A stretch of 61,652 nt of DNA, filler included, from Sluysia triapertura (taxonomy: Eukaryota): NCBI GenBank assembly GCA_046118255.1. It is 4 parts of 4 records of this genome, joined end to end, with 100 filler letters (N's around TTAATTAATTAA, not from the genome) between each part and the next. Parts side by side here need not be neighbours in the genome. Positions count along the whole stretch, not along the records: positions 14,999 to 30,289 come from JBJNIA010232121.1; 3 more parts are not named here. One strand, 5' to 3'. Shown piece after piece: positions 87 through 57,921 of the stretch. The notes beneath the pieces were generated by a model that worked only from the letters and a program-made list of their open reading frames with translations, was not told the DNA's origin and did no database searches. Within the stretch, counting starts at the first letter, position 1, and the number at the start of each line of letters is the position of its first letter. The position numbers and the translations under genes are program-made.

Positions 87-172
87 ATACTGTATTGAAG
101 CTTTATGGAAAATACATTAAATTTTAGGAAAACTCAAAAAATCTTTAGAAATTTAATAGTAAAATTTCTAAC

Positions 173-1183
173 GCTTTTGAAATGGATTTAAGTGCAGCTT
201 TTCTCTCCCGATGAAGAAACCAATTCAGAATATTTCTACACAATTTCGGAGGGCATTTTGTTTCGACAGAATCTGAATTTGGACACGCCAGTCTGAAAAA
301 GCGGTAATAATCATTTACAGACCAGGCCTTGCGAAGTCGAACTGCGAAGTCTAAACATGAATCTTGATAAGGAGGTGGCGGTAAACTGGCTAGAGTAGTA
401 TTAATATTCAGGAAATCTCGGGTAAACATGTAATACAGGATTCTGTATGCAGTAAATTCAAGATGATCTTCACATTCGATTCCTTCTTCGTATAATAGCT
501 TGATCTGACTTTGACATTGATTAAATTCCTCGTGATCACCAGCTTCCAATGCAATCGTGGCATGCACCTTATACACACGCAATGTGAACTCATCTCGCAC
601 ACACTGCACGGTGAGATCCTGTCGAATACTCTTCATCTGTTCGCACACATGTCGATAATCTAGATGCTGATCATACCACAAACTCATACAATGAACTAAA
701 GCTTTCTGAAGAACCAATGGTGGTCGCACTTCACTGGGTTGAGGAGCTCGAGTAAGTCTAAGATATCTTTTTTCCAATTGTTGGCATGTTCCAACGATAG
801 GACCAGATTGAGTTTCGTCAGCAACGACAGTGTTGACTGTTCCTACCCGGTCTATGCTCCAAGTTTCATCAGTATATCCGATATCTCTTGCCGATTCCAC
901 GTTCGCGCTCACGTTGTCATTTGAATCTACAGGAGCCTCCACAAACTGTCCCGAAGAATTCAAGTGCTCTTTAAATCGAGACGCTCTGTGAGCTAATTTC
1001 TCTGAACTTACTAAACATTGCTCCAGTTGAAATTTCTTTTTCCCTTTTTGTTTCTTTTTACTTATATTTTTGTTGGTAACAGTTATTTGAATTCCAGTAT
1101 CTTGGTTATTGTTATTATTACTCTCATTGTGGTTTTGATTTTCCGTTTGCTTGAGCTTCATCAATCGGCCGCCTTTTCCGATT
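173..1183 (-). CDS. LENG8: LENG8 exon 7 (SAC3/GANP domain)
   Basis: Acceptor TTAG ending at 1184, donor GC|GTTAGA at 172; SAC3/GANP motifs in ORF 145..1224. Confidence 0.93.
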
Positions 1184-4100
1184 CTAAGATAATGACTCGT
1201 TTCAAATTCAAATTTAAAAAACATTAACTACTTCATAATAAGGATTTGAAAATACATTTGAATGTTATTTTATTGTAAATTTCAGTAAGAAAGTTTTATT
1301 TAAAATTATTTACTGAGAAATAATTTGATAGAGAAATTTTGTTAGAAAAATCATTTGGTCTTAATCGATTTTATTTTAATAAAGATTTTTCATAAAGAAC
1401 AATAGATGTCAGAAATGAATTGAATTGAATTATATTATCAGATATTGAAATAAATTTAGAAAATTTTAGAAAATCTGACTTACACAAAATCACTGCAACT
1501 GTAAATTATATCAAATTTGAAAATTGAAAACCGATTTTAAAAAGTATGGATTTTGTGAGCGGAAAATCACCAGATCAAGTACTAATTTAAAAGATTACTA
1601 TACATTTCGATAACGCTTTTGGGATGACTAATACTAATATTGTAAAGAACAAAAACCAACCTGTTATCAATCGAATAAGGATTTGAGTTTTGTTGATCTT
1701 GATCGGCAGAAATCAAACGAAACTTTTTATTCTTCGAATGAAACTGCCGCTTATTAAAGTTGGAAGTGGAAGATGGCGACGAGGAACCACGACTTCTCTT
1801 ACGAATATTCTCGTTTGAATCACGCTTAGACCGATAATTGTCATAATCCTCGGCAATTGCGATCACATCATCGCCCGAAGATTCAGAATTCGACTTGTAG
1901 CGAATCCAAGATGATTTTGATTTATGACTAGAAGAGCTACGACGATTTCGACAGTGTCGAGAAATTGATCGAGTAGATCTACGCGACCTAGATTTAGATG
2001 ATCGAGACGATCGAGACCTCGACGATCTCGGCGATGATCTTGATCGCGAATCAGAACCAGATCTGGATTTTGTTCTATTTCTTTTATTACTTCGGTTAAA
2101 TCCGGTACTATATCTGGCTCCTCTACCTCGTCCGCGTGTACCACGTGCTAAATTACCACGAGTTGAGTGTGTCATGACTGGGGATCGAGACTTGGAACTA
2201 ACTGATGACTTAGAACAACTGACACGAGCCTTACTACGAGTACTATTACTACTGAAATTAGATGCATTAACAAAATGGGAGGCTGTATTGGAAGTGTTGC
2301 CTCTTTGGGAATAGAAATGGGCATTAGAAATATTATAATTAGTGGTGACAGAATGGGTAGGTAAGTTGTTATGTCTGGAAATAGATGTGGCTGTGGCCGA
2401 CAGTGGTGTTCTTCCATAATTAGGCGGCAGGTAATTAGAGGCCACTTGCAACCTAACAAATATCCCTTGTTAATTATCTAATTTGAACACATATCGGTTA
2501 ATGATTCAGAATAATGTTTTATAGAAAAATAATAGATTTATTATAAATTTAATAAAATATAGTTCGAATATTATGAAAAATTTCGCACCATCAACACTGC
2601 ATCAAAGTTTCGCATCTTTGAAATAAGATTAAATTTTCTACTACACTAGAACTCCAAAAACTGGAACATCCTGAAACGGGAACAACTTTCTATAACTGGA
2701 ACACACTTGTAGCTTTTATTTTTACTATAATTTTAGAACAGATAATTGTGTTTTGTTTAAATATTATTAACCACCATATTTTATTCATTTTTGTGATTAT
2801 TTCTTTTACTTTACAGATTTTGTTTGACACAGTATTTTAGTATCTAACTTAATACTTTGCATACCCATATAATGGGGCATCGAAATCAAAACGAAATCAA
2901 ATCAATTTAACACTAAGCGATAAATTTTAGAAAAAGTAGATGACACTGACAATAATATATTAGATGAATACACAAAATTTCAGAACTACTCTTTTCAACT
3001 TAAGAAAACAGAAACATGAGATATGCAAGCCACATCATCATCGTCAAATAAAATGAAATGATGTGAAAGGAAAATTATTAGCAACTTGAAAGGAGCTCAA
3101 CTTGTATAAATGATTCGTGTCGAAGAGGGTCTAACTATATCAGGTCCAATACCAGCAAATCTTTTATTTTAACTAAAACTAACTTCTTCCTGAAACTTGA
3201 ACATTGAACATGTTCCAGTTTGGGGAGTTCTAGTGTAAACGATTTGGAAGTTCTTCGAGGTACGCGGTTTTTAATTGGAATCTTTTAAGGAAACAGACCT
3301 AAGATGATTAACACCTGAAATTGATGTAATATTCTTTTCGAGGAAATGAAACTATACATATGCTAAATTTGCTATTTAAGATAGTAATGCGAAAATGTTT
3401 GAAGAATATTCGACAGAACATTATTGGATTCGAAGACCATTATTTATGAAAAGTAAACTATTTTTGTTACCATTTATTTACTTATCTAAGTTCATATAGA
3501 CCTTAAAATAATATCACACAAAATAAAATTTTGATCTGGTGATATTCTCTTGAACCACTACACAAAATGCAATCTTAAAATATGTTTTGTTTAGTTACAT
3601 GATTATATACCTTCGGCTATTTCAAATATTGAGAAAATATAAGTTAAGACTTAGAGCTCAAATTACGTTTGTAATTATTTAGATATTTTAAATTAATTTA
3701 ATAAAAACATTTTGTTAAATAAAACACATGACTCGAATTACTTCAACCGTTATTATTTGAAAATTAACATTAAGCATCGTAGTTCGAAGGGTCCCATTTT
3801 ATATACATGAGGTTTCATTTGTTGTTTCACTTAGGCCTTATTTATTGCTATCGACATAATTGTTAATGCAAATTATCAAATTTATGCTAAAAATGATTTC
3901 ATTGCTGTTGCGGAAACTTTAAGTTACCGAGTGTACAGAGAAAAGTAGTACTTCTGATCATTTAAAAACTAGAAGTACAAATAGCCGGTGACTGAGTACT
4001 TTAGAAAATCGGACTAAACTCATCATTTACTCCAACCCAATAATTGTTATGCTGTGAGTAATAATGTAATGTTTGATAATAAATTTAATAACGAAAAAAC

Positions 4101-12009: not shown

Positions 12010-14898
12010 TATCCAAACACTATATTGCTTTGATTTATCTAACACTTAACCTAGGGCAAAATATTTTTTAGCAGGGTTCGGTTACAGTAAGCGTCTTATA
12101 ACGTATCATTGGCACTCCTGTAACTAATAAGTTAAAGATCACTTAAAAATCAAATAAATTAACTTAGGAGGGTCTTAGAACTACTAAATAAATTAATTTT
12201 TCAAATTCAATAATTTAATAATTAATTAACACAAAAATCAAATTAGTTTATTGGAAAAATATACATAGAATGTTAATAAGCTTAAAGATAATAAGTTATA
12301 AAGATAAAACAAAATAAATATTATTAGAGATTAAAGCTCCGAGAGCGTTTAATCTAATTCTAATAAAAATTTAAGTGGAGTTTACCCCTCAATATATGGA
12401 GGACTTAGAAAACTTTATAAATTAATATATAATTTACGTATATTTTAAAATTTTAACTTCTAAAGTTAAAATCTAACCTAACAAATATATAAGTTACCAG
12501 ACTCCTCGATCGATTGCCAAATTCCAAAATTGTCACAATTTATCTCGAAGACATTAATATCCAACGAATAAAATATTGCAAATGGCGACTAATAAATATG
12601 GCGATTTTCATTGGTTGATGCTAGTTTATATACTAGTCGTCAACCAATGAAAATCGATGGAATGTTCTAAACTATTTTTAGAAGCTTATTTTCTATTTTA
12701 GAAATTTTATTTTCTTTTTTGGAAAATAATTGTTTTTTAAGTAATTTTAAAAATTAATAATTAATTTTATATGCTTTATACAATGCAACGTATAAAATTC
12801 TTAAACCTTAAAGTAACTATAAAAACATAACAACATGATGTTAGGAAGGAATCCATGAGATCTGAAAAGATGAAAATAATAATAATAATGATAATAATAA
12901 TAATATTAAAATTATAAGAAATAATAATTTCTAACCTGTTAATTCTCATGGAATACTTAAATGAATAATATAAATTAAAAGAAATGTTAGTTCACAAAAG
13001 AATAATGTAAGGTTGCTGCAATACAGAACATAGTGGGACTGAATAATAATAATAAAATAATAATAATAATAACCTCTGATTGTTCTAAATTAAAAATAAA
13101 TAAATACTAAACAATTAAATTTTCTTGCTGCAACCTGAAAAAATAATATTATTGTGTAAATAAAAATCACTTATTATCTTTCCGAGATGAGAATCAATAA
13201 AAATTAATTTAATTGTAAAATAAATACATGTAAATAAAAAACAACTAAAAATTACTCTCGAATTTTTATTTCAATTTAGTTGAATAAATAAATAATAAAG
13301 AATTATAAATAAAAATAAATTAGAAATTACTTTGTGTCTTTGAAATAAATTTGTGTTCGAGGATTATCCGTTGGAAAATTAATTTGGATCGAAGGAGTTT
13401 GACGTAACTTCTGATTGACCTGAGTACATTTAATTGGTTTTGTTTTACGAGTGATTCGTCGTACGAAATACTAAACTCAAATTTGAAAATTTTGGTAAAA
13501 CAGTTCCTGATTATCGGATCCATCTTACTTATTCAAGGCCTTAAGACTAAATTAACCTTCTATAATTTAAGAGAGTTTTACAACCATGTTGTAGATTTAA
13601 TGATGCTGAAGATGAAGAATCTTGAAGTATCTTAATTTTTGGTTCTTCATTTTATTTTAATATTTGTGTTTTGTTTTGTTGTTTTATTTTGTTTTTTTCA
13701 TTTTCATATAGTAGTTCATTTAACTAATTTAACTAATAAATTATTGATTGTTATAAAGTTAATAAAGATCGCGGGGAACTTTATTGTAATTTGATTGTTA
13801 AAATGTCAAATAATATAAAAGCTAGATTTTGTGATACTACAAATATCAATATACTAAATGTTAGAAGAGCAATTATTAAAACTTCCGATAAAAGTAAAAT
13901 TAAATAGATGCTAGGATTTTCTCTTATTTTCCTAATCTAACAATTATAATTTTAAACGCGTGTTCATCTGCGGTATACGGTTTATAACATAAAGTAGACG
14001 TATCCACAGAAAATAATTACGAAAGAAATTGCCTTACTCTTGCGAATGAAAATTACTTAATAACAATTACAATAATAATAAATTAGATAATAGAAAAAAC
14101 AATTTTCTGATTGTTAGATATGAGATTTTGGTCTAATACTTGTGTGAAATAAGTAGAATAAAGTAAGTCAAAGATGTGAGTCCACTAACGTATTGGACTT
14201 ACCTGCTAGGGCCAGCCGTTGGATTTTTGTAAGATAAATTTAAAGGAAAGTAAGTCTCTGGAGTACTTTTTTTATCTAGAGGTGAATAGTATTCAAAAGA
14301 TTGTAATTTGAATTACAAAATTAAATAAATCAAATTTAATTATATATTTTTCGCACGATTTCTCTATATGGAATCAAAAGTAGAATTTTACCTGCTAGAA
14401 TTAAATTCTAGTCTCTTGAAAACTAGATGTGAGATTTTAATTGATTTTGCAACTATGTAATTTATGGATTAAAAATTGTAAGAAAAGAAAATTCTTTTAT
14501 TATTTAAATACAAAATATGGTTGAAAAGAATAATGATAAAATTTACATTAACTAACTATCGTTAGTTAGTTATAGTCAGTTATAATATATCAAGTGATTT
14601 ATGAATATCACGTTAATACTGTGACCGAGTTTCATAAATCTGTAAGAAAAATGTGTAAAGTGTACAGAATAAAGATTAAGAAATGGTGAGTCCACCAACG
14701 TATTGGACTTACTGACTTAACGGCCAACCGTTGGATTTATCTGATAATGCAAAGAGGTCAATAATTGTATTTTTTGTCTTGCAAGAAGGTCAAAAAATTT
14801 TATTTAAATTTTTTAAATTAGACAATATTTTAATTCGATTCTATTTTAGAACCGTTAGTGATTTTAATGAGGTTCTTAAACCGAACCTTTAAATTTAT
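12010..14898 (+). mobile_element. Non-coding LTR/leader-like region of a dispersed element family
   Basis: 12030-12780 is collinear with 51470-52930 (ACTTAACC..GGCAAAA..GGTTAC; TCAATATAT.GG.GGA; CCAAT.AAAATCGA; TTTTGGAAAATAA). It holds two copies of hairpin motif A, a long palindrome and a duplicated pseudoknot-like motif. Termini not identified. Confidence 0.5.
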
Positions 14899-14998: not shown

Positions 14999-16490
14999 AT
15001 AAAATCATTTGATGTACATCGTTCACGTTAACTTTATGATTATCAGAGTTGCATGTATTTTGATTTAACATCGTTTGTAATTCCTCTTTATTTTTGGTTT
15101 CATCTAAATTATTTAACCTTGGCATCCTATTGGGATTTCTAGTAATATGGGATGATTCATTTATAAATAATTTATAAAACATTTCTTGACTAACAATTAT
15201 TATGTTGAAACTCGCATTAAGCTTTGTCAAATAAACTTTATAATCTAATTTTTTAGATACATCTATCAAAATTCAATCTAATTCTTTAACATCATTTATA
15301 TGCAAATCGTTAGTGTTATTATCTTCGAAGCTTCGAATTGGGTTTCCTACATTATCACTTGACAAAATGTGTTCTTCTAAATTGCGTACAATAAAACACT
15401 TGTTATTGTCTTTGTTATTCTTTAAATACTCATTACTAAAGACTAATAAACTAAATTTATCAAATACATTCTCTGAACATTTATAACTACTTTAATTTAA
15501 TTGATGACAATTTTTACTACCGGACGATTCATTAAATTCACCATTAACTTTAGAAGTAGATAGAATAATGTTTTCAAGCATGTTCGATTGATTCGCCAAA
15601 TCAGGATGTTTGATTATTCCATAATTTTCATATTCATCCCAGTCTCCTGTTTCATCTAAAAAAACTTTCTGGAACTTATTCTGTATGATTCTCTGATTGT
15701 CTGGATTCTTTTTAAACTGGTAATTGTCCCAATTTCGTTTTGAATGAAACTTCTGTTGAGAGTTGCAAACCGCTAATTGTGATTTTTAAAATTATTCAAC
15801 TGTCTGGAATTTTTAATCGAATCTAATTTTGTAAACCGTGATATGAAAAATTTTGCTGTCTGGAATTTTTAATTGTGTCTAATTTTTGTTTTTTATTTTT
15901 AAATCCACCCAATCAGGTTATTAATTAGTGAAATAAACAATGATGATTCTGATTGGGTGGTGTACTAGCAAAAATCAAAATAATTGAAATGCTGATGACT
16001 GATTACTGACCGTCATCAACGTTGACAGCATAATGAAAATGTAAATAGGCTGTCATCGTTGGTGATGGCAGCAACCAGTTTAGACGACAATCATTAATTT
16101 TTATTTATTTCATTTAATTTTTAGGTACCGATTCGATAAAAGTACAATGGAAGTAATAATAATAATAGTAAGGCTGATAAGATTATTATTATTATTCTCG
16201 TTTTTAAAATTTGAAAAAAACATAAATCTTTACAAAACCTTTAACACGAGCTTTCTGTCTATTCTTTTGCTTCTATACATATGAAATAAAAAGGAATAAG
16301 AAGAATGTTGTACTGTGAAGGAACAACAACAACTAAGTGTATAATGTATTATTTGTGGTTGTTGCTTCACAGTATAATAATGAAATCTTTAAAGCTATTC
16401 AAAATCTGGTTTGAAGAATGTAATGGTTTAGGTTGTAAGAAAGTAAGGGATGTTAAAATAATTGTTGAAACTTATTAAAAGGTTTATAGT

Positions 16491-17360
16491 TTGAAACAAG
16501 ATTTATGCATTAATTTTGGTGGCTTCAATATGGTAGCACCAATATTACCATTGAAGGATGGAGTGTTCGGAAAACCCATGGGAGAGGTGATGTATACTTA
16601 CAAATGTAAGAAAGTTACGGTAAAACTATATGATAGTATTGAATGTACAAATGAGTTACCTGTAGAATACAATAATGAAAAACGATATGTAGAACCGGTA
16701 ACTAGAATTATTGTTCCGAGAGAAAATAAGGTCAAAAAACTGGATTGTTCAGTATTAATGTCACTATTGTATAAAATGCATGAGAACTATTGGATTTCTT
16801 TACCATCAAGAATTAGAGTAGAATCTCCCCCAGCTTTAAGTTTAATAGAATTAAAAAAAGGAATTATCTTTCAAACGGAAAATGATATTTTAAAAAGTGG
16901 AATGTATCAAATATCAGATATTAAGAAAGCATGGAATGAGATATTGTTTCCAATTAAAAGAGCACGAATATTAACCGAAATAGTGGATGCTGCATTACCA
17001 AAAGGCTCTAAGGCACCTAATTATGAATTATTACTAACACAAGATCACTTTGAACAGGCAGCGAAACATACTTTACACAAAATTTGGGGAAAATTTGCAG
17101 TAATTGGACAATTCTTTTCAGGGTGCATCGGAATCTATATTGTTATCAAAGCTATTATTATTGTATGCACTCAAGTGTTGTCAACGTATAACATCTATCG
17201 ATTAACCGGCTGTACGTGGAGAATCATCACAGGATTGATTCCCTCCATAGGGCATCATGTGGTGAGTCATGAACATACTCAAGTGATACAAGAACTGTCT
17301 AGCCCAAAAGTACCTAAGAATTATAATAACCACGAGAAATCTGGTGAAAGAAAACGATGA
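16491..17360 (+). CDS. Chuvirus (Jingchuvirales)-like envelope glycoprotein, C-terminal half (endogenous viral element)
   Basis: Ordered motifs GEVMYTYKC, CTNELPV, EPVTRI, DCS, W..LP, GMY...DI...W..I.FP, then W.KF..IGQFFSG.IGIY TM segment and a second hydrophobic helix (GCTWRII..LIPSI). This is the pattern I recall for chuviral G and its retroelement-captured copies. The N-terminal half is absent. Confidence 0.8.
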   Translation: MKQDLCINFGGFNMVAPILPLKDGVFGKPMGEVMYTYKCKKVTVKLYDSIECTNELPVEYNNEKRYVEPVTRIIVPRENKVKKLDCSVLMSLLYKMHENYWISLPSRIRVESPPALSLIELKKGIIFQTENDILKSGMYQISDIKKAWNEILFPIKRARILTEIVDAALPKGSKAPNYELLLTQDHFEQAAKHTLHKIWGKFAVIGQFFSGCIGIYIVIKAIIIVCTQVLSTYNIYRLTGCTWRIITGLIPSIGHHVVSHEHTQVIQELSSPKVPKNYNNHEKSGERKR

Positions 17361-17478
17361 GTCCTTAAATCCGCTGAAAATTGTTGAAGAAATACGACAG
17401 GAAAATAATAAAGACGCCATCAATAGAAAAAACTGTTATTATCTAAAGAAACATTATAATGGTTATAATATCTATTAA

Positions 17479-17730
17479 ACAATATTAGTAAATAAGTACT
17501 CCGTAAAAGGATTAATAGATACTGGATCACAAGTTTCCGCAATGAAAGAAAAGGAAAAGATAATAAGTAATAATGATTGTCTAGAAGGGATAAACGGAGA
17601 ATTAATAAGTGTTAGAAGTCTTTTAGTCGATATGGAAATATTAAATCAAAAGGGAGAACAAGACTTTACGTTTTAGACGAATGCTCAGAAGAAATGGTGA
17701 TTGGTATGGATATACTACAACAATTGAAAG
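17479..17730 (+). pseudogene. Retropepsin (A2 aspartic protease) domain 1
   Basis: ILVNKYSVKGLIDTGSQVS (DTG at 17518-17526) ... one frameshift ... ECSEEMVIGMDILQQL. Confidence 0.85.
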
Positions 17731-17999
17731 ACGTAGTTATACATCCGATTCAAGGATTACTAACATTAGATGAGATGAAAGAAATCGCAACTGAGTTAAA
17801 TATAATTGCTATTAATTCAGACTCTATTGAAAGCTTAGATATGACTGAGAGCGAAATAGACAAAATATTCTCAATGGAAAGTGAAGATAGTTCTGAGACG
17901 GAAAATCTATTTAACACCGCAATTAATACAACACCATCCGATGACATGTTGAACGAGACACCAATAGATGACACAACAAGTAAAATTACATTGGAAGAT

Positions 18000-18318
18000 A
18001 CTACAAGAAGAAGTAATAATCCTAGAGCAAAGGAACGACGAAGAAATAATGAACGTTATCAATAATATAACAAAGAACATCTTTTCTAATTACCAAATCC
18101 AGAATAATGTTTTAAAGTATAAGATGGAAGATAAAGTCCTAACGGTGGTACCTCAGTCGAGGAAAGCGATAATATTAACGAACTACCACCACGGTCAATT
18201 GGGAGGCCACCTTTCAACCAGAAGAACTATTGAAAGAATAAAAAGGAAGTATTACTGGATCAATATGGAATACGAAATCACACAGTGGTGTAAAAATGGT
18301 AAAATGTGTAATTTTTAG
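18000..18318 (+). pseudogene. Ty3/Gypsy-type integrase N-terminal zinc-binding (H2C2) domain with no catalytic core
   Basis: VVPQSRKAIILTNYHHGQLGGHLSTRRTIERIKRKYYWINMEYEITQWCKNGKMC; one expected Cys is Gly. A protease follows directly, not a DDE core. Confidence 0.85.
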
Positions 18319-18429
18319 AATGAAGTAGTAAAGGAACAAGCCAAACAGGAAGGCATACAAGATGATGATACTATGATAATACTATGAAACAAAATTTTAT
18401 ATGGCAAGATATAGAGCCACCTCCTTACA

Positions 18430-18720
18430 GATTGTATCAGGATATCATAATTAATGGAAAGCTAATACAAGGACTAATCGATACAGGTTCAGACGTAAGC
18501 ATCAGACGATATGAAGATATACCAGAACAAGAAAAGATAATGTTATTGGAAGTATTTGAAAAATTTGATGGAGTCGATACATCAACCATGATATTTAACT
18601 GACAGAAAGTAGAAATTAGAATTGAACAGTATAACTTTCACATAGAAATAGCGATAGTACGTAACTGTCCAGAAGAAGTAATAATCGGAATGGACATATT
18701 AGAAAAGTTCCCAGATATAC
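18430..18720 (+). pseudogene. Retropepsin domain 2
   Basis: IIINGKLIQGLIDTGSDVS (DTG 18480-18488), in-frame TGA at 18600, then IVRNCPEEVIIGMDILEKF. Confidence 0.85.
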
Positions 18721-19089
18721 TTATAAAAAAGGATTGAACTAAAAAAGAGGTTAAAGAAACCGAATGTCATAGAAATCTTACCCAATAGAAATCAGCTTAT
18801 CTTTCAAAAAGGAAAAAAGTATAAATACATGTTTAAAGGAAGAGATCAGTACACAGAAATGGAAGATTTATTACAAAGACTAGAAAAGGCTATAAAAAAC
18901 CCGGAGGACATAAACGAATTAGAAAGTCATCAACACTATGATGAATTCACGTAATCCTCTACAATTATATCCAGACTTGAAACATAGACTAAACATAATA
19001 ATACAAAATTGGCCATTTCACCAAATAATTCATATGAATTATTTAGTAATATGGCTGATATGGAAAGAAATTGGTATGGAAAAGCTAAT

Positions 19090-19326
19090 ATGAAAGTCAT
19101 AATGAGAATAGATGGAACGGAACAATAAATAGAAAAGGAATTTCACGTTTGACTGACAGTATCATCTTTACTAGATTTCGTAAAAACGTATTTGAATATA
19201 ACTCAAAAAATAAATTTGAATTATAGAGGAAGAGTATTAGACAGAGATTATGGACTATATTTAATTGATTTTGCATTCCCAATAAACTATCTAATTGACG
19301 ATGACGAAATCACAATTACAATTGGA
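19090..19326 (+). pseudogene. Ubiquitin-like domain copy 1
   Basis: MKVIMRIDGTEQ*IEKEFHV*LTVSSLLDFVKTYLNITQKINLNYRGRVLDRDYGLYLIDFAF...EITITIG follows the beta-grasp pattern (TV..L helix, L.Y.G..L, L.D[FY]); two stops. Confidence 0.6.
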
Positions 19327-19830
19327 AATGATGAAAATAGTAACCCTAAATCTCCTAATGAAGCACAAACATCTTCGGAAAACTGTTGAAAATGGTTGAA
19401 GAAATACGACAAGAAAACAATAAAGACCCCATCAATAGAAAAATCGTAAATCGGGAATTATATCGTGAGGTGTTTAGAGAATTAGCAATAAGTAATCAAC
19501 AACGAGAAAGTTGTTACCTAGGCGAGTACAACCAACTTATCTATTAGACGAAGCATTGAATAACGAGAGAAGAATATTAATGCTTCCTAGAAGAGAACCA
19601 AGTCCACATAAACATGATCATTTATATGAAGAATTAGAAGACGCATTAAAAGAACCAGTAAATTCAATGAGACTAAAAGTAGTAATCGACATTGTTTTAG
19701 AATCAGGGGAATTGTTACATGAATACTCACATCTCAAACACCGACTAAATGAAATTGCACAGTTCTGGATACCTAGTCGAAGGGCAAAAATTTATCAATT
19801 ACTCCGTGATATAAATATGGAGGAAGATTA

Positions 19831-20061
19831 ATTAAGGTAAAAGTGAGAGTGGAAGGACAAAATATGATTCTAGAAAAGAATTTTCGTATTAATATAGATA
19901 TAGACTTGCTAAAATCATTTGTAGAAGCTCGAGCAGGTGTCTCCGGAGAAATAGATATGTATTACAGAGATCGAATTTTGCTGGAAGATACATACCTATT
20001 GGATTATGGATTTCCAATAGATTTTCTAACCGTTCAGGATGAAATTATTGCAATAGTGAAA
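19831..20061 (+). pseudogene. Ubiquitin-like domain copy 2
   Basis: IKVKVRVEGQNMILEKNFRINIDIDLLKSFVEARAGVSGEIDMYYRDRILLEDTYLLDYGF...EIIAIVK aligns with copy 1 and with ubiquitin (LK..V....G; L....L.DY). Confidence 0.65.
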
Positions 20062-20224
20062 AACAATGAAAATGACGGTCCTTATAAAATGAATTGTTTT
20101 AATCATCATTTCGAAATATGGAGAGAAAATGAAATACGAAATCAAAGAAGGGATAGATTTCTACCGCCACGAATAAATGAACATTCCTACATGGCTCAGG
20201 ATAAAGAGAACCATAAGCATACAT

Positions 20225-20480
20225 TTTTATCAACAATTGGATTTAATGGAAATAAATATCGACACAGGCGCGACTCATTCATTTATTAATGTAGAAATAT
20301 TAAATAAAGAAATGATACAAGATATAACTCCACATTTTGGTATCATAACGTCGGTAGTAGGTGAAAAAATAAATTTAATAGGAAAATTAAAATGCGAATA
20401 ACAGTTGCTGGAAGAATAATTACTTGTACTCCAAGAATTATAAAGGATTCTCAATATGACACAGAATTGCTACAGGAATA
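20225..20480 (+). pseudogene. Retropepsin domain 3 (truncated)
   Basis: INIDTGATHSFIN (DTG 20261-20269)...ITSVVGEKINLIGKLKC, frameshift, ITVAGRII. Confidence 0.8.
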
Positions 20481-20559
20481 GAATATACTAGAATGTGACG
20501 ATCTGATAATCCCATGCTTCACTCCTGATTACTAAAACGGTGTATTAGGTTGTGGTAAT

Positions 20560-20830
20560 AAGACTATTCTGCTTATGTTTTCCTAATAATCAGCCACATG
20601 AGTATTTGCAACAAAAGTGTTCGATATCACATAATGCAAATAGTTCAACAAAAGAAAATAGCTTGTTTTATAACAAAGCTTTCAAGTTGTTTGTACAAAG
20701 GTCGTTTAATGATCCCGTGAAATGATTCCACCATCCCATTTGTTTGTGGATAATTCGTGTTATCCAAGTTTTCATCGAATGCTATATTTCGAAATAATCC
20801 ACCATTACAAGTAACTATTATTCAAAATTA
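20560..20830 (-). mobile_element. Retroelement integrase catalytic-core relic, opposite strand
   Basis: Minus strand IIVTCNGGLF...TNYPQTNGMVESFHGIIKR matches the IVTDNG..F / YHPQ.NG.VER.H..IK motifs. Confidence 0.7.
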
Positions 20831-21793
20831 TAGGGGAAATTTTGAATCATACATATTTTACTTGGTTAAATTTATTGTTAAGTACCATAATCATAAAAGG
20901 CCACTATCTGGAATATTATTTAAAAATTTATCTTTAAAAATTGTGTAAATTCATCTCTAATAATAAATAGAGTATTTATAGTTCTTTCATTTTTAAACTG
21001 ATTTTACATTTTATATTATGATTCATGTAATGGTTTAATGATTCTATCTATAGTTTTTCTTAAGTTCAATAACTTTTTTAAAATTGTTTTTTTAATTTAT
21101 GCCCGGCTTAAGGCCATATGAACATAAAAGCATTAGTAATGATTCAATAAAAATAACTAGTTAACTTTATAACAAATAACATTTGTAGCACTGATCAGTT
21201 TGACCAGCATTAACACCGACACACATTAACATTTTCTAAACATGTTTCAACACAAAAAAACATGATCATAACGCGGTATCGGAAAAAAGCTATACAATCA
21301 TAACAATCACCCAAGGTACTAAAATTTTTGCAATTGGTCAAATTTATCAAAACGACTAAATAAATCATTTAATAATGTTATAACTTGTGGAGCAGATGTA
21401 CGTCATTCATTTGAATGTGATTATATTCAAATAATGTTGCCACTTGCGAAGCAGCTTTGTGCACTTCAAAATTACATTTAAATAAAATAAAATCACTTAT
21501 TAAACTAATTAACCATAATGTCCTTTGACCAAAACAAATCGTTCAAGGCTTATTTCAATAACAGCATAATGATGTGAACAAACTTTATTACTTTCTATTT
21601 CTAAATAAGCCAAGAACGTTGCTAAAAACACAACTAGAAACTTGAAGATTTAACAATATAGAACTAAATATTAAATAAATGAATCATAATGTTGATGTGA
21701 AATAAAATGTTATTTGATATAAATTATGGAGGGTGGGTTTCATAATATTTTATTAAATTATTTGTATTAGTTGTTATTGAAATATTAACTTTA

Positions 21794-40369: not shown

Positions 40370-40640
40370 TTCACTGTCAATTGCTCTGATTAAACATTCT
40401 CGCATATACCTAAAATATGGATTAGAATCTTTTCTAAAATGCAGATTTTATGATATTTTTCAATTTCGAAAATACTTTTTCAGTTGGATTAAGTTGTTGA
40501 GAATACGGTGGACTAAATTTTATTTCATGACCCATATAAGATACAAGATGTGATTTATGTATGGGTACATTATCCATAATGATTATCATATTTGACAAAA
40601 GCATTAAATTATCTGAAAAACCTTGTAAATTAGACAAAAT
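40370..40640 (-). mobile_element. Tc1/IS630-type DDE transposase fragment
   Basis: IIIMDNVPIHK...PPYSQQLNPTEKVFSKLK matches the DN...H / PPYSPxLNPIE motifs. Confidence 0.85.
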
Positions 40641-41669
40641 GTATAATAAAATATAAATATATTTAAATATAAATAAATAAATATATAAATAAATATAAAT
40701 ATATAAAAATAAAATATAAAATAAATTATATAATAAAAGTATTTGTTTATTAGAATTATAGATATGAAAAAATAAAATGGAATATTAGCTATTTTTGTTA
40801 CCTTTTTTTGAAACAGTATAGCACATTTGGTTAAGCATGAAATTTGATTCATGATAATTCAAGACTGACGAACTCGTTAATCAAAATCATCGAATAAAAA
40901 TTTAGTTTCATTTATTACTAAAAATAATATTCATCACATTTTATTTTGAAATATAGTTTTACATTTTTATATGAAAAAAAAGCTTTCCAAATTCCATTTT
41001 ATATTTAATTATATTTTATATTTTATATTTTATTTTATGTTTAATTTATTTAAATATTTTATTTATTTTAATATTTTAAAATTTATTTTAATATTTTATT
41101 AATAAATTAAAAGTTTATCATTGTTTTTGTAAATATAGTTTGTTTATATTTAAATAAATTATTATTATTTTTGTTTCTATAAACTATTCATAAAGTTTAT
41201 TATTGTTTAATTTAAATTTCAAAGATTTTATATTTTATAATCACATTTTAATTGTACAAATTAATTTTCTATTTTTTGAAAATAGACATGATTATGTAAA
41301 ATTTAAATTTTTTATAAATATTATTAAATTGTACAAATATTTTTGGAGCTATTTTACAATAAATATTTTTATTAAATATATTTCAAATTCTAAATTTTAA
41401 TGCCACTGTAAAATACAAATCATTAAATATTTGATGCATTAAGTATGTGAAAAGTTTTTTCTACAAAAAGTTTTTAGTTTAAAAGATGTAGAATTTGATT
41501 AATACTTATTTCGGTTTGATTTAGTTGGCTTAATGTGAAGTTATATATTAACAAAGACAATGTTAATATAAATAAAATACTTAACTAATTAAAATAAAGA
41601 GAAAATGAAATAAATAATAATAATAATAATGCCTAATTATAACTATAAACTAACATATATAAAATTTAG

Positions 41670-50211: not shown

Positions 50212-53200
50212 ATGAATGTTATTAAATTATTTCTTTATATAATGCCACTATACAAATTACATGGTATTAATGGAATCGAAGATTTTTCTGATAGGTTTCA
50301 ATTTAGATTTATTCCATTCGTGCTGGTAGTGTGTGGAATAACAGTTTTTTTATGCGGCTTTTTGCGATGGCCAATTACATGTATATTTGCAAATAATCCG
50401 TATGGTATGAATTTTCATGAATATTCGGAATATTTATGTTTTACTGAAGGCACTAGTGTAATTCAATATCACATTTCTTCACATTCAAATGATATAGATA
50501 AATATTCTTTACGCTACTATTCATGGTTACCGTTTTTATTTCTTTGTCAAATAATTATGTTTTCTATACCAGAAATTATATGGAAAAAGGTGCATAAAGA
50601 GTGTGTAGGATGTTCATTAAAGCCGATTATTGTGATAGGGTTAAATATAAATAATAGTGATATGGATGATAAAGAAAGAAATTCAAAATTAAGTGACTTA
50701 ACTGAAGCAGTTAGAAAAATAAACAACTTCGTTAGATTTTTATTTTTTAAAAACAATTTTGTCAAATTATATATGCATTTTCCTCAATAAACATACGAAA
50801 ACTTATTTTATATTCACCTTAATATATTCTAAAATAAATTTTTGGTCAAAACTTGATATTCATTTTATTTGAAGTTAAACTATAATAAAATCTAACGTTT
50901 GTAATCTTAATAAATTAGAATTTTTCTATTTAATACTAGGCAGAAAATTTATTCTTAAAAAGGTTGAATTCTACTGTTAGGACCATTTTTATGCGACTAA
51001 CAGACTCTGCCGGCAATTTTTCTATTATTGCTACTTTGATTACGATGATAGACCTAAATGATAGGTTTACGCAGAATCCAAAGGCATTTATAAATGGATA
51101 ATTAATGTCCATTGTTCTAAAACGTAAGTTATTTATTGAGATAAATAGAATAAGCTTCTCTGTGTTATGCCGTTCAGATGGAGACTGTATTTTTTGTAAT
51201 GGTAATGAAATGTTAAGAGACATTAAGAATAAAGTTAAACTTGAAGTGGAATATTATGAAATGTTCTGCTTAGTTCCATTGGAGAAGAGTGATGATATTA
51301 AACATTGCATAAATTTCAGTCATATAAATACTGCAACAAGATATTAGCATTTCAAATGCTATCCTTTCAATAATTAGCACAATAATTGGTAGTCCTAATG
51401 TATTTTCACTGCTTGGTGCAAGGAAATATCAAATGTTAGTACACTAGGTTGAGAGAAATACTATATTTTCATGCGGTTTTCCTAGCACTTAACCATGGCA
51501 AAAAAAAATTGAGCAGGTTCCGGTTACGGTAAATAACTTATAAGGTAGGATGGGCGTTACTGCAACTGTAAATTAACAATTCTTATCTTAAACTATATCT
51601 TTAAATGAATGTTTTTCCTTTTAATTATGCAATTTAACTTCCTTTTATTCCTTTAATAATTATTCTTAGAGGTTCTTGTACTACCTTGCTTTTTAAATTA
51701 CAAATCAAAAATGCACTTTACATAATAAATAAAACAATGAAAATTTAACAATTTATTCGAAACAATACAAATTTATAATAGACATTTATAAAAAAATCAG
51801 GTGCAACAATAAAAATAAATTTAAAATAAAAACCTATTAAGTATTTAATTTATAATAGTAACGAATTTTAAAATGAAGTTTAACCGTCAATATATCGGGG
51901 AAATCAAGTGTATAAATAAAAATTTGGTAGATTTTATGATATTAATTTCTGTTCAGATTTAACTAAAACTTAACTGGACAATTATAAAATATATTAAACG
52001 GGTCCACCTATAATCTAAGTTTTATATCTCACGGAAGACTTAGTTATAGGATTGTAATATGTCAACGCTACGAAAGAGTCCTTACTATCAATTATGTATA
52101 TCTATTGACTACTGATTAATGTTACTTAATTGTATCTTTTTATAGCAGACTCAACAACTTTACGAATCAAATACAAAAATTAAAATAACAAAGTTTAATA
52201 CTCTAAATATTCTACGAATTTTTATTTTTCACAAAGAAAATATTTAATAATACAAGTGCGAATAAGTGAATATTTAATAATATAAGTGCAAATAATAACA
52301 ATAATAGTAAATATATCAATTTAAGGATTTCTCCTAAATTAAATTATTGAATAAGATTTTAGTATGATTTTAACCCAGGTGAATACTTGAGTGTGGAAAA
52401 TGAATATGATTTTGAGTATATTTTAATACAGCAAAACTATTTTATTTTTATGTACTTTTATAAGTTATTATTGATTTAATTAATTAAAAAGTTAAACAAA
52501 ACAATTTTATAATTTTAATATCTACATAATCTACATAATATCTACATTTCAAAAAATAACTTACGAAGTTCATGGAATTGGGAAATAAAATAAACAAAAT
52601 GAAATAAGATAGACAAAATTGAGTGTTGCAGAATAATATTATTAGCCTTCTCCAGATGCAATTGATGTTGATAAACTGAAGGCCTTCAGATTAATTATAA
52701 TGTTTTTGTTAAAATTGCGAATAAAACCAAAATTTCTGCTGAAATTGTGAAAAATAAAATTATAACAATGTGACTATTTGTATAGGCTAACAGCCAATCA
52801 AAATCGAATAGATTTCTAGAATGTTCTAGAAACTTCGTTGTATTTTATAAGCAAATTTGTTTTGGAAAATAAGTTTCTTTTTTTATAAAATTGGTCTTTT
52901 AAATAATTTTAGACAATTGTAATGACAACCTAACGTAACTTACTCATTTAAAAAAATTTGACCTCAAAATTTGACACATTTTACAATGAAATTAGGGATT
53001 AAGTGATAAAATATAGAACGATATACATATGTAATCAAAAAGTTTATTACTGTAATTATTCCATCAATAACCTTCATTGTGATCAAATATGTTCAGATCA
53101 TTGTTGTCATTTAACCCATGTCAATCTCTATCCCAGCCATAAAGGTCATCCCGGGGAGAATGGGAGGCGTCGTCAAACTGTCCAGGAGAAAGCAAGTCGA

Positions 53201-55258
53201 TACAGCGACAGGAGAGTAGAGGAGAATTAAACGTAAAAATCTTCTTAATCGCCAATTATTGTGGGATTGGTTGCTACTGGAGAAAGAAAAGAATGAGGAA
53301 ACGAATGTGGTAAAAATGACAGATCCTTTAGCCAAATATGATCAAATAAAAGAATGGCATATTTAATAATCAAGGCAAGACAATTTTCGAGGAAAAAGGT
53401 GAGGTCATTTTATCACCTGTTTTGCTTTTATGAAAGGATCGTCTGAAGAGAATGACACTAAATTGGTGTTGGTGAGGAAACAATACCCGTCAACCAAACC
53501 TAAGGAATGTTCTATGGATTATAAGTAATTCGGGGTATAATGATACTAAAAACTTGTCGAAAAGCTGCGAATTTCTTCAATATCCTTAGCTGTAGGTTAA
53601 ATGTTCTTCATTGAGTCCATGAATTTCTTTATAAAAATTTTTTAACTCGTACTCTAAGTCGCAGGATTTCCAGTGTATGATACTTTTTCTGATAAGGTAT
53701 ACAACACAATTGCTTATCGTTCACGTTAAAAACATGATAGAATGATGTGTCTCATCAAAGACGGATAAGAACGGTACGTGAGTATAAGTACGACACTCCT
53801 GTCACAACAAAATGTTGAACATAAGTGTCGTACAAATGTGATGAACATGTTTTGTTTTCGAAGGAAAGCATGAAAGAGTATGGTTAAGGTGGAAGGATAT
53901 TTTCCAGCTTCTGTTCTATTCCATTTTAAGAAACGAATAGTCCAACAAAATAGGATATTATTAACCAGAAAGATTATTAATCGTGATTGAAGGAAAGTTG
54001 GCGGAATACGTGTGTTACAAGGTTAGTATTTCGGGTTAAAAGAATTGGTGGTACATTTCGGAGGTGGAAAAGAAACACAGTCAGACCCGCAAATACTTTG
54101 TCCGTTGGCTAAGTAGATGTGATCTAAAACGACATAAATTATATAAAAAAGGAAAAAATCGTCATATACAAACAAAGCAAAAAAATTTTGTAAATTATTC
54201 TTTTAGTATTTACATATTGTAAAAAAATTATTTTAAAGAATTGCAAAGAGGTAATTTGTTTAAGGAAAGGGTTCGGTCTAATGTTAAGGTGTTTATTGTA
54301 GAGGCCATTGGCCTTGTAAAATCTTTTCAATTCATGCACCCGCCTACTACGTTTTTGCGTTTATAGTAAGGCTCGTGTATGGTGACTACAGCATTGAAGT
54401 TAATTTGAGCACTAGATAAATAAGTGCAAATAGTGTCTGTATCTGGCTATGTAGAAAATTTGATAAGCTGTTAAAGTTGGACGACAAAAATGACAAATGG
54501 GATAAGCAGTGGGATAATTGTAGAGAAAAAAGATATACCTAAAGTGAAATCGATGATATCGAGGCATAGAAGAAGCTTGGTGTTTTCTGAGTGTTTTTAA
54601 ACAAATTGAGCAGATGGAAAAACCTATATCTAAAAAAATTAAATTTAACAAAAGATGTATAATAAATTTATAGAAAACCTAAGTAATCTTTTTCTTAATT
54701 ACAAATGAAATTATGCTGCGAGAAAGATACATATAGCTACATCCTTAATTCGCCGCAACCAGGTGTATAGAAAAAACCACAACGACGGTCGGTTCTCAAA
54801 TTGAAGGATATACTATTTCCTAAGCACAAACTGGATACTTATGTCGACGAGTTAAAAGCAGATTATATTTAATAGCTTCAAGCAACACGATTGATGTTAA
54901 ATAAAAATGTACAGCATTTAAACAAAAATAACTTATTAAACATGACTCATTAAAGAAATTTAAATATTTATTTAAAAATTCAGTTAAACAAAAAGAGGAA
55001 ATTTCAGTCCGTACATTTAGTTTTGTTTTATATTGCTATCAAAATCCTTTATTTATGCAACGTGATATTTCAATTATGGTTTGTGGAGCACATATTTCGA
55101 ATTGATAAATCATCTCAAAATACGTTCGGTTTTTCTATTTTAAGACGCATTATTGATCATACAGATCAAACTTTCAATGTAACTCAGACTATTTTCCCCA
55201 GATATGCATTTTGCCATGTTGAATTCAAATTATTAGCTGGTGTAAATAAATATGTTTG

Positions 55259-55319
<61 letters not shown>

Positions 55320-57921
55320 ATTATTATTATTTGCAGTTTTTCTAAGATATTAATTAACTATTAAAGTTTTATCTCGAACATCAAACTAAGATGAAATAAA
55401 TGAATAAGGGAGAAGAAACCCATCTAATTGTTTACCATGTTTCAGTATCTGAATAATAGACTAATTATTAAAGATTCAAACCAGTTATTTCAATAAGAAA
55501 TATTTAATTTAACCTACTATTACCTGCAGCGAACTTAATTAACCAATATATAATTTATTAAACTCGCAGTTACGATGACATTTAAGTAAACAAGTCCACA
55601 CATAACTTTTCTACATGCTAGAATTATACTATAAACAAAATTATCGTTTTAAAATAAGGTAAGTAACAGATCTTATTGATGAATTATGTAAAAATGTCAC
55701 TTTTGAATTACTGCCATTCATGAGTTAATTTGCTTTAGTGTAATAATAGAAAATAAAAACAGTGATCAATATACTATGGATAATAATAAAACAATTTTAT
55801 GTATAATAACAAAAATTATCAATGCATTTTTCCAGTTAATCACTTAAAGCTCTTTTGAAGAAACAATTGAGCCACAAATTCAATGTGTTAATTTTGAATC
55901 AATATTCGATAAAAATGAACAATTTCTTTTCTGTGCCTGTAAATTTTCAATCAATTCGGATTCTAAAAATCTGGAGTCTATTTTTGAGCACAAGTTTTTA
56001 TATCACGATATTTACGATTTCATGAATGGTGTCTATATTAACATTGACTCGAAATCAATTTCCGTTATTTTTTTATTAATGATACAAATTATATTAATAT
56101 AAAATGATGCGGTGGGATTGATTAATTCTATCACTAGCCGATTTAATATTTTCCTTATGAGCAAAGTCGATTAATGGGTTGCCATTCTTTGGTTTTGTGT
56201 AATTGTTGATTCTGGAATTTTTAAAAAACTTTTGAAACTAGAAACTTTCGCCGTTTTTATCTTCATCCTTTATTAAAACCATTCTGTAGCTTTTATTAGG
56301 ACTATTTGTTTTTTGATTAATTTTGTTTAATTTTTTATTTACAATTGATTTTTGATATGTAATTTTGATTTTTTTTTCGTCCTTTTCATCATTAGTATTT
56401 TTAATTTTAGAGAATTCTTCAGCCGGTATTTCTAATTTTTTATTCGCACAAATGACTTTTCCATTTATAGAAACATCTTCTGTTACTAAATTTTGAATTT
56501 ATATATTTAATCTGAATTTAAATTAGTTTTATGCGAAAACATTATTATCTGAATAATATTAAATTAAAATGAGCATATATTTATGGAGATTATAATAGAG
56601 CATTTATGCAGATTTTATGAAGATTATATTACAATAGTAATTTACATGTATTTGGTCTTTTGTAATAGTTAAATGTTTGTTAGTATTCATCTTTTGCGCT
56701 GCTTTTCGTATTTTATTAGATTTAATTTGTGAATGTCTGAACTTTAATTATCCGAATACAATACACACCATTAACAATTAACTAAATGTAAGAAAATATC
56801 AGTATAACGCATATATTCCAAGTTACGCAAAATCCACTGCAGAAATTAGTTTGAAGGCTTTGGTTTTAATCAAGGAGTTGTATCCAAATTCAATATTTAA
56901 ATTGTCGGCGAGCTGGTGTCAGCTTTTCGTGAAGAGGAATGATAATTTGTAAGAATAAGAGATAATTCAATAATGTAGAAAATTGGTTGTTAATCAGAAA
57001 TATACAATAATTTAAGGAAGAGGTATGAATATCGAAGAATTCAAGAAATTTTGTATGACTAATGTCATGGACGGAACGAGTAAGATGATATTTATGGTGT
57101 GAAAATGAATTAATGTTCGGAGAATATGATAAGCCAATTGAAATTGAAAATTTGACAGAGAGAAGATGAAAATAATTGTCTCCGTAATGAAGAAACTTTA
57201 TTTGAATGAAAATAAACATTTTTGCAACAATTTATTCTTATCTGGATTCCTAATTTTCTAAACAGGATAAAAATTATTTACTGATCACGATCATCATTCA
57301 AAAAATAAGACTAAAAGCGTGATATGTAATGGATATTTACTGTAATTTCTTACTATTATCTTGTTTAAAGATGTTTCTAAATGTCTTCAAAATACTTTTG
57401 AAAGTTTATTCTACCGTTTTTGTACATTCTCACATACATTAAAATTATTTCGTAAATATTCAGATTCACTCTAGATATTTAAATTTATTTAGATTTTTAA
57501 TAATTTTATTTTTATTATTTAGGTTGCTCAATGTGTTTTACCATTAAACATATTACTGGAGAAATTATTCGTTATACTTTGTTTGCTCTTTTTAGTATCA
57601 GGAGCTTTTACATTAATGTCTATATTTTATTGGTTAATAAAACTATTTACACGTCAACGCGTAAGGTATTTTGAAAGACTTCTTAAATACCACAGTGACT
57701 ATCGTCGACAATTTGATGATTCTAATAATAATTTGGATAAAGTAATTACTTTTGAAGAATTGACAAAAGAATTAAATGTTAATAATAGTTTTCTATTAAT
57801 GATGATTGGTTATAATTGTGGTGAAATATTATTAGCTGAAATTCTGTTGAAAATAGAAAATAATCAGCTTAGTGCTAATATGAATGGTAAAAATGCTGAC
57901 AATCAAAAGCAGTTCTTTTGA
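50212..57921 (+). CDS. inx: Innexin (gap-junction protein), 3 exons, 395 aa
   Basis: Exons 50212-50730, 54984-55253, 57523-57921, all phase 0. Motifs EDFSDR, PITC, EYLC, YYSWLP, KILYLCN, FPRYAFC, QCVLPLN..EK; four hydrophobic segments. Confidence 0.93.
52794..52850 (+). promoter_or_regulatory. CCAAT box, five-unit heat-shock element, TATA-like box
   Basis: GCCAATCA at 52794; tTTCt-aGAAt-gTTCt-aGAAa-cTTCg at 52813-52837; TTTTATAA at 52843. Confidence 0.55.
53100..54135 (-). pseudogene. ORF-X copy 2, decayed
   Basis: LFDKFLVSLYPELLI, IP*VWLTGIV/LTNTNLVS...DPFIKAKQVI, KDLSFLP align in order with copy 1. Confidence 0.6.
54412..54651 (-). pseudogene. RING-H2 finger gene copy 2
   Basis: CSICLKTLRKH...HRFHFRYI...ICHFCR; two Cys ligands lost; aligns with copy 1 with at most a one-residue gap. 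Confidence 0.7.
56780..57110 (+). mobile_element. pogo-family transposase relic in innexin intron 2
   Basis: FKLSASWCQLFVKRN (CENP-B-type HTH) and FKKFCMTNVMDGT (pogo C-terminal FKK..I.N.LDG motif); the middle is deleted. Confidence 0.6.

Follow-up and report, generated by a model that had tools for sequence, protein, structure and literature searches.

A C-terminal gB-type env fragment in Sluysia triapertura, probably a decayed piece of an inherited Ty3/gypsy-type element

The 61,652-nt stretch of DNA analyzed here (the window; 4 joined parts of the Sluysia triapertura assembly) contains an open frame related to chuvirus glycoproteins, located just upstream of retroelement pieces that are repeatedly broken. 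The initial annotation regarded this frame as either a younger capture or a selectively retained env fragment in a probable flatworm, and read it as a sign that Jingchuvirales-like glycoproteins circulate in the lineage. The locus raises the questions of where the glycoprotein came from, and whether its unbroken frame reflects retention by the host.

The host was assessed using a LENG8 exon present in the window. Parasitic flatworms provided its best named matches, and in the LENG8 tree the exon was sister to 11 trematode and cestode rows (100/99). These results bear out the flatworm assignment and place the host outside trematodes and cestodes; it would be either a monogenean or a free-living flatworm, the LENG8 set holding no named reference for either group. 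Features of the window lying outside the retroelement pieces were as follows:

148-1227 (-): host LENG8/SAC3 exon
15905-15960, 16010-16068 and 16308-16377 (+): pre-miRNA-sized hairpins (z -4.8, -6.0 and -7.0, respectively)
40437-40784 (-): DDE_3 transposase piece
50212-57918 (+): innexin exons

Extent and content of the env frame

The open frame noted initially (16491-17360) was contained within a slightly longer stop-free frame of 293 codons (16479-17360, + strand). Shuffling these 882 nt 2,000 times never yielded a frame longer than 165 codons, indicating that the frame is coding-derived. Its parts are the end of a central helix, a gB domain IV-like beta domain, a stem and a single transmembrane helix. 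Residues 27-279 matched positions 367-619 of the 653-position Pfam model PF24664 (E 7e-43), a span that corresponds to the C-terminal 40% of a chuvirus-like, gB-type fusion glycoprotein, and Atlas agreed with this assignment (0.96). When a 651-position env profile representing the full env regions of 11 relatives was compared with the whole window, it matched at positions 364-635 only; positions 1-363 were absent from the whole window, with no other match above -1.6 bits. Thus the N-terminal half of env is missing, as had been proposed. Similarity to relatives spanned about 16491/16527-17306 and was weak before about 16527. A tblastn hint that env extended upstream through the stop at 16476 was rejected, since the profile search gave no support there. 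The first ATG lies at 16530, and translation from it would give a product of 276 residues.

Two membrane segments had been proposed for the fragment. In a Kyte-Doolittle scan with a 19-residue window, residues 212-230 were the only ones to score at least 1.2 (2.39), arguing for one segment instead; the predicted helix that follows it is weakly hydrophobic. The fragment has no signal peptide, no N-terminal hydrophobic segment and no N-glycosylation sequon, and it keeps cysteines 43, 56 and 90. By their position in gB, the fusion loops would fall in the missing half. The available text of Chary and Hayashi (eLife 2026, PMC13524379) likewise places them in the N-terminal half. Features of a functional class III fusogen that are present comprise the gB domain IV-like fold and the C-terminal transmembrane anchor, with structural matches that are consistent and weak.

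The predicted model of the fragment had a mean pLDDT of 80, and residues 20-120 were confident. The best Foldseek match was domain IV of pseudorabies gB (E 0.022, probability 0.99), and 41 of the 42 rows listed were herpesvirus glycoprotein chains. Residues 532-672 of HSV-1 gB aligned with model residues 1-125 over 120 residues (Z 6.5, rmsd 3.5); the other VIA rows were coiled coils with Z equal to that of HSV-1 gB. No structural match reached E 0.001 or Z 8, and a PDB sequence search with the fragment returned nothing meaningful. The predicted model therefore resembles herpesvirus gB consistently but weakly, the likeness being to domain IV, with the N-terminal half missing from the relic. Taken together, the fragment is a chuvirus-type (class III, gB-like) glycoprotein lacking its N-terminal half, consistent with the original assignment.

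The surrounding relic and its polyprotein-borne relatives

The env fragment is the first piece of a roughly 4-kb relic (~16490-20480) that holds half an env, 3 broken proteases, an integrase zinc finger and 2 duplicated accessory blocks:

16479-17360 (+): env open frame, encoding the C-terminal half of a gB-type env
17112-17168 (+): the single clear transmembrane segment (env residues 212-230)
17287-17478 (+): linker frame overlapping the env end, with a stop at 17476
17464-17741 (+): aspartic protease 1, broken by the stop at 17476 and a frame change near 17660
18016-18315 (+): pol segment ending in an integrase H2C2 zinc-binding domain (PF17921, E 1e-13)
18426-18725 (+): aspartic protease 2, interrupted by a stop at 18600
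18926-19359 (+): accessory block copy 1, broken 3 times; possible ubiquitin-like domain (lead only)
19682-20094 (+): accessory block copy 2; possible ubiquitin-like domain (lead only)
20228-20481 (+): aspartic protease 3, broken

The pol segment lacks both the RT and RNase H that precede it in relatives and the integrase core that follows it. An RT-RNase H profile gave nothing above 1.7 bits in the window, an integrase-core profile gave nothing in the orientation of the relic, and tblastn with gag-bearing relatives as queries found no gag in the window. With gag, RT, RNase H and a full integrase missing, the locus is a relic as opposed to an intact GAG-ENV-POL member. We found no LTR pair and no LTR-sized direct repeat around it; 2 assembly gaps lie 1.5 kb upstream. 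Other viral genes (L, N) were absent from the 13 and 17 selected frames scanned with Pfam. A weak trace of a gypsy integrase core (5 bits) was observed on the opposite strand at 20621-20758 (-), where the same region of several relatives also matches; it is possibly the remnant of another element.

An exhaustive phmmer search with the env fragment identified 583 proteins, while a word-indexed protein search found 1 longer relative and none near the length of the fragment. The 12 best phmmer matches were 33-45% identical to the fragment, and in 10 of them the protein continues downstream of env into an aspartic protease (a weak match in one case). Three of the 12 also have RT, RNase H and integrase, as do the longer cluster members P0151 (4,844 aa, with ankyrin), P0154 and P0279. 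The nearest relatives are giant gypsy polyproteins, in which env precedes, in the same frame, several proteases along with RT, RNase H and integrase. By comparison, the 3 matches named as chuvirus glycoproteins were 28-31% identical to the fragment. A metagenome search confirmed 3 of 224 candidates; two contigs, L001 and L002, each hold an uninterrupted frame (3,426 and 3,703 codons, respectively) in the order env, proteases, RT, RNase H, integrase, with gag zinc knuckles present also in L002. None of 27 candidates was confirmed in a search of prokaryote genomes. Among the matches listed in a search of sequencing runs, 2 runs contained 0.29 and 0.06 of the words, and no RNA run was among them.

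Several features of these relatives were recorded in passing. Many aspartic-protease motifs per polyprotein, up to about 8, were seen in P0151, P0006 and P0003; P0151 has 8 D[TS]G motifs after env, some of them beyond integrase, and no mention of multiple proteases occurred among the papers listed in a literature search. A separate RNase T-type exonuclease frame follows pol in both metagenome contigs (L001:10617-12107 and L002:12085-13473). In P0076, immunoglobulin domains are joined with a complete PF24664 glycoprotein. P0005 is filed as a protein of a Flavobacteriaceae MAG, yet it is a gypsy env-pol polyprotein, and its bacterial filing is probably contamination.

The order of the relic (env, protease, H2C2, post-integrase protease) follows that of P0003 and P0151, whose post-integrase proteases were the best tblastn matches to protease 2 in those proteins. 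The accessory blocks had no match in 21 proteins of related elements. Copy 1 and the C-terminal part of copy 2 share 34% identity over 82 aa. Their Atlas rows were ubiquitin and SUMO-like (0.84-0.86), a lead only; Pfam gave no ubiquitin match in the blocks, and a single-sequence model of the domain (pLDDT 44) displayed a strand-strand-helix-strand order.

The frame said to lead from 17287 toward protease 1 does overlap the end of env, by 74 nt, but it stops at 17476, 14 codons before the catalytic motif at 17518. Between the WGxF motif and the first protease motif the relic measures 144.3 codons, compared to 131-214 codons in 11 of the 13 relatives in which the motif was found (18 examined). 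Env and protease 1 are out of frame and stopped in the relic, whereas they are in frame in its nearest relatives. The spacing matches that of intact relatives and the frame does not, so we read the overlap as most likely the product of a lesion that broke a once-continuous env-protease frame. A 65-nt direct repeat (17367-17431 and 19379-19443; 89% identity, with the same peptide encoded at both) may mark a template-switch junction and serve as a rough internal clock; because one copy lies at the env-protease boundary, a recombination junction there is possible. AT skew was 0.13 in env, 0.23-0.27 in the downstream pieces and about 0 in the flanks; the relic is alike in this respect to L001 (0.15 in env, 0.31 downstream) and L002 (0.10 and 0.24).

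The phylogeny with retroelement-borne copies suggested initially was addressed with 2 trees. The first comprised 61 rows, including 15 fused proteins and the 45 best others, taken from 137 with enough coverage (77 omitted). The env fragment fell inside a 19-row clade containing all 15 fused proteins (100/99), and a 27-row mixture-model tree agreed in placing it in the fused clade. AU tests rejected forcing the fragment into either group with named chuvirus G (p 2e-11 and 3e-67). Its placement as sister to all standalone G proteins was not rejected (p 0.063); the tree set held no named G of a flatworm jingchuvirus. These sequence comparisons place the fragment in a polyprotein-borne clade that appears separate from the G proteins of Chuviridae and Natareviridae.

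Preservation of env relative to its neighbors

Breaks downstream of env were counted by hand. There were 17, of which 10 fell within 1,976 nt where homology fixes the frame, and their spacing (median 180 nt, range 24-435) agreed with the frequent interruptions described at the outset. Compared with these 10 breaks, env had none in 771 nt, corresponding to P 0.037 if env is named in advance, or P 0.025 when every one of the 17 inferred breaks is counted. Choosing the longest gap afterwards instead, as was done initially, gives P of about 0.4 for a break-free stretch of 810 nt. The unbroken frame is thus weak evidence of host retention.

We likewise measured decay at conserved sites. Relative to 15 relatives, 3 of 33 conserved env columns were changed, compared to a mean of 9.8% for intact relatives; with a nine-relative set 0 of 26 were changed, and for H2C2 1 of 10. 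At 105 constrained columns the env fragment had 9.1 residues unlike those of any relative, just above the 4.7-8.6 of 8 intact relatives at similar distance and the highest of these values. For each 0.05 substitutions per site, 6.5 more such residues are expected. The excess in env was about 2, versus roughly 7 expected at the ~5% decay per copy that is suggested by the 89%-identical 65-nt repeat, and the H2C2 block had no excess. These comparisons point to light decay of both env and H2C2.

Origin and present state of the env fragment

We consider it probable that the env fragment is a decayed piece of an inherited retroelement env, belonging to a deletion relic of a Burro-like GAG-ENV-POL Ty3/gypsy element. 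Such an element would have encoded its gB-type env as an in-frame section of a single giant polyprotein with several proteases. One copy would have inserted in the flatworm genome, and would since have lost gag and the N-terminal half of env, along with RT-RNase H and the integrase core, while the remainder gathered stops and frame changes. As judged from their layout, the adjoining proteases of intact relatives probably cut env from the polyprotein, and env is probably the fusogen of the particle, as the known class III fusogens also suggest. The piece that survives could not act as a fusogen, since the signal peptide and fusion loops belong to the missing half, and the likeliest reason for its open frame is that lesions have so far fallen elsewhere. 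We infer that all pieces of the relic come from one element, and that the env fragment is without function. Counted against a single-element relic are the absence of an LTR pair to prove one insertion, and accessory blocks that are unmatched in the 21 proteins of related elements. Counted against a retroelement origin of env is the basal placement that the AU test permits (p 0.063). Counted against decay without function are the a priori break test (P 0.025-0.037), the 0 of 26 changed columns, and the low excess of unusual residues, with no excess in H2C2 either.

With respect to known systems, the available text of Arkhipova and Yushenova (2019, PMC6431247) describes planarian Burro/GYPSM1 as giant gypsy elements with one polyprotein of about 4,900-5,100 aa; env lies in frame between gag and protease and is homologous to mononegavirus-like fusion glycoproteins, BCL2-like, ankyrin and Ubi/SUMO-like accessory domains are present, and decaying fragments are reported in Dugesia japonica. 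Among the relatives identified here, P0001 (a weak Bcl-2 match ahead of env, as in Burro) and P0151 (ankyrin) share accessory domains with it. In contrast to Burro as described there, the relic spans 4 kb without gag, RT, RNase H or LTRs, and its possible ubiquitin-like blocks follow the integrase segment instead of preceding env; several proteases occur per polyprotein in its relatives, and such multiplicity is not mentioned for Burro in that text. The relic thus looks like Burro in architecture, the basis of the link, as distinct from direct sequence comparison.

HSV/gB-type GAG-ENV-POL errantiviruses with env upstream of pol are described from Platyhelminthes in the available text of PMC13524379, which lists 9 intact flatworm members from Macrostomum, Prostheceraeus and Schmidtea. 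Compared by described gene order, the relic is similar in having a gB-type env directly upstream of a protease; it differs in failing their intactness criteria, which require full RT and integrase. Its lineage may already be sampled there. According to a table of that paper, only 3 of 50 parasitic-flatworm assemblies show one ENV-POL env, and a monogenean host would for this reason extend the known range. The same text cites Sacco et al. 2022 for nematode gag-env-pol elements. Troyka elements, as described in the available text of PMC12440569, were rejected as a match because they carry no env.

A family mosaic would instead require that the env half of a younger, intact family member, perhaps together with its H2C2, was template-switched onto an older, decayed, non-autonomous copy. 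We regard this as unlikely. In its favor, a switch junction would be expected to leave a repeat such as the 65-nt segment, which occurs both just after env and within the 3' accessory region, and env and H2C2 are little decayed at conserved sites, with proteases and accessory blocks heavily broken; but the env-to-protease spacing matches intact relatives, and a post hoc test finds the distribution of breaks consistent with decay at a uniform rate (P about 0.4).

Retention by the host is a quite improbable account of the fragment. It holds that selection has maintained a truncated, membrane-anchored env (a gB domain IV-like domain plus transmembrane segment, starting at the ATG at 16530), perhaps as a dominant-negative subunit disrupting the fusogen trimers of related elements, or as a source of small RNA. 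In its favor are the open frame (P 0.025-0.037 if named in advance), the unchanged 26 columns, the retained cysteines 43, 56 and 90, an in-frame ATG near the start of homology, and the confident model for residues 20-120. Set against these are the missing signal peptide, N-glycosylation sequon and fusion-loop half, the post hoc P of about 0.4, an unusual-residue count that is the highest among comparably distant sequences, and the position of env among plainly decayed pieces. A more elaborate version, in which the protein is transcribed behind the hairpins at 15905-16377 and provides dominant-negative or small-RNA defense against enveloped retroelements or jingchuviruses, seems to us correspondingly doubtful. 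Retention, if true, would make this locus a rare example of env co-option in an invertebrate; among the 12 of 54 results listed in a literature search, none concerned co-option of a class III env fragment in a flatworm.

Direct capture, meaning recent integration of G mRNA from an exogenous jingchuvirus beside an unrelated gypsy relic, is highly improbable and largely refuted by the trees: the PF24664 match, 31% identity to Tacheng tick virus 4 G over 236 aa and the AU p of 0.063 for a basal position speak for it, but the closest relatives of the fragment are polyprotein-borne, grouping with the named chuvirus G groups was rejected, a protease follows env at its native spacing, and 0 of 65 candidates were confirmed among 2.9 million viral contigs searched with 2 motifs of the close clade, motifs that are biased to polyproteins. 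Also in its favor, jingchuviruses infecting parasitic flatworms are already reported from cestodes and trematodes in the available text of PMC7305300 and PMC9241645, and no G of these viruses is among the named references used here; the reported tapeworm virus genome encodes only L. Jingchuvirales glycoprotein EVEs and Anakin BEL/Pao elements, integrated in arthropods and some nematodes, share the PF24664 family with the relic and often adjoin LTR-element fragments (available text of PMC10084718 and PMC7642597). Theirs are related to G of Chuviridae or Natareviridae, whereas the relic env falls in the polyprotein-borne clade. The proposed younger capture from Jingchuvirales is accordingly disfavored by the nesting of env among retroelement polyproteins, and the locus is uninformative as to whether jingchuviruses circulate in this lineage.

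As a probable relic of an inherited element, the locus is a further decayed example of an enveloped retroelement type already known from flatworms. It also illustrates that a PF24664 match can be mistaken for a record of chuvirus infection when the nearest relatives are gypsy polyproteins. Of modest value are the numerous protease-like motifs per polyprotein in its relatives, and the range extension if the host is a monogenean.

The hairpin cluster upstream of env is the more curious by-product. Lying just upstream of the env piece, the 3 hairpins account for 3 of the 11 stable + strand windows in 61.6 kb. Rfam gave no match at gathering score across 15000-21500 (7 weak matches), and the trio is possibly an unannotated miRNA cluster; the hairpin at 15905-15960 may instead be what we take to be an inverted pair of CCAAT boxes. 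Further very stable folds were observed at 12601-12690, 53781-53870 and 60561-60650 (z -10.3, -6.2 and -6.4, respectively).
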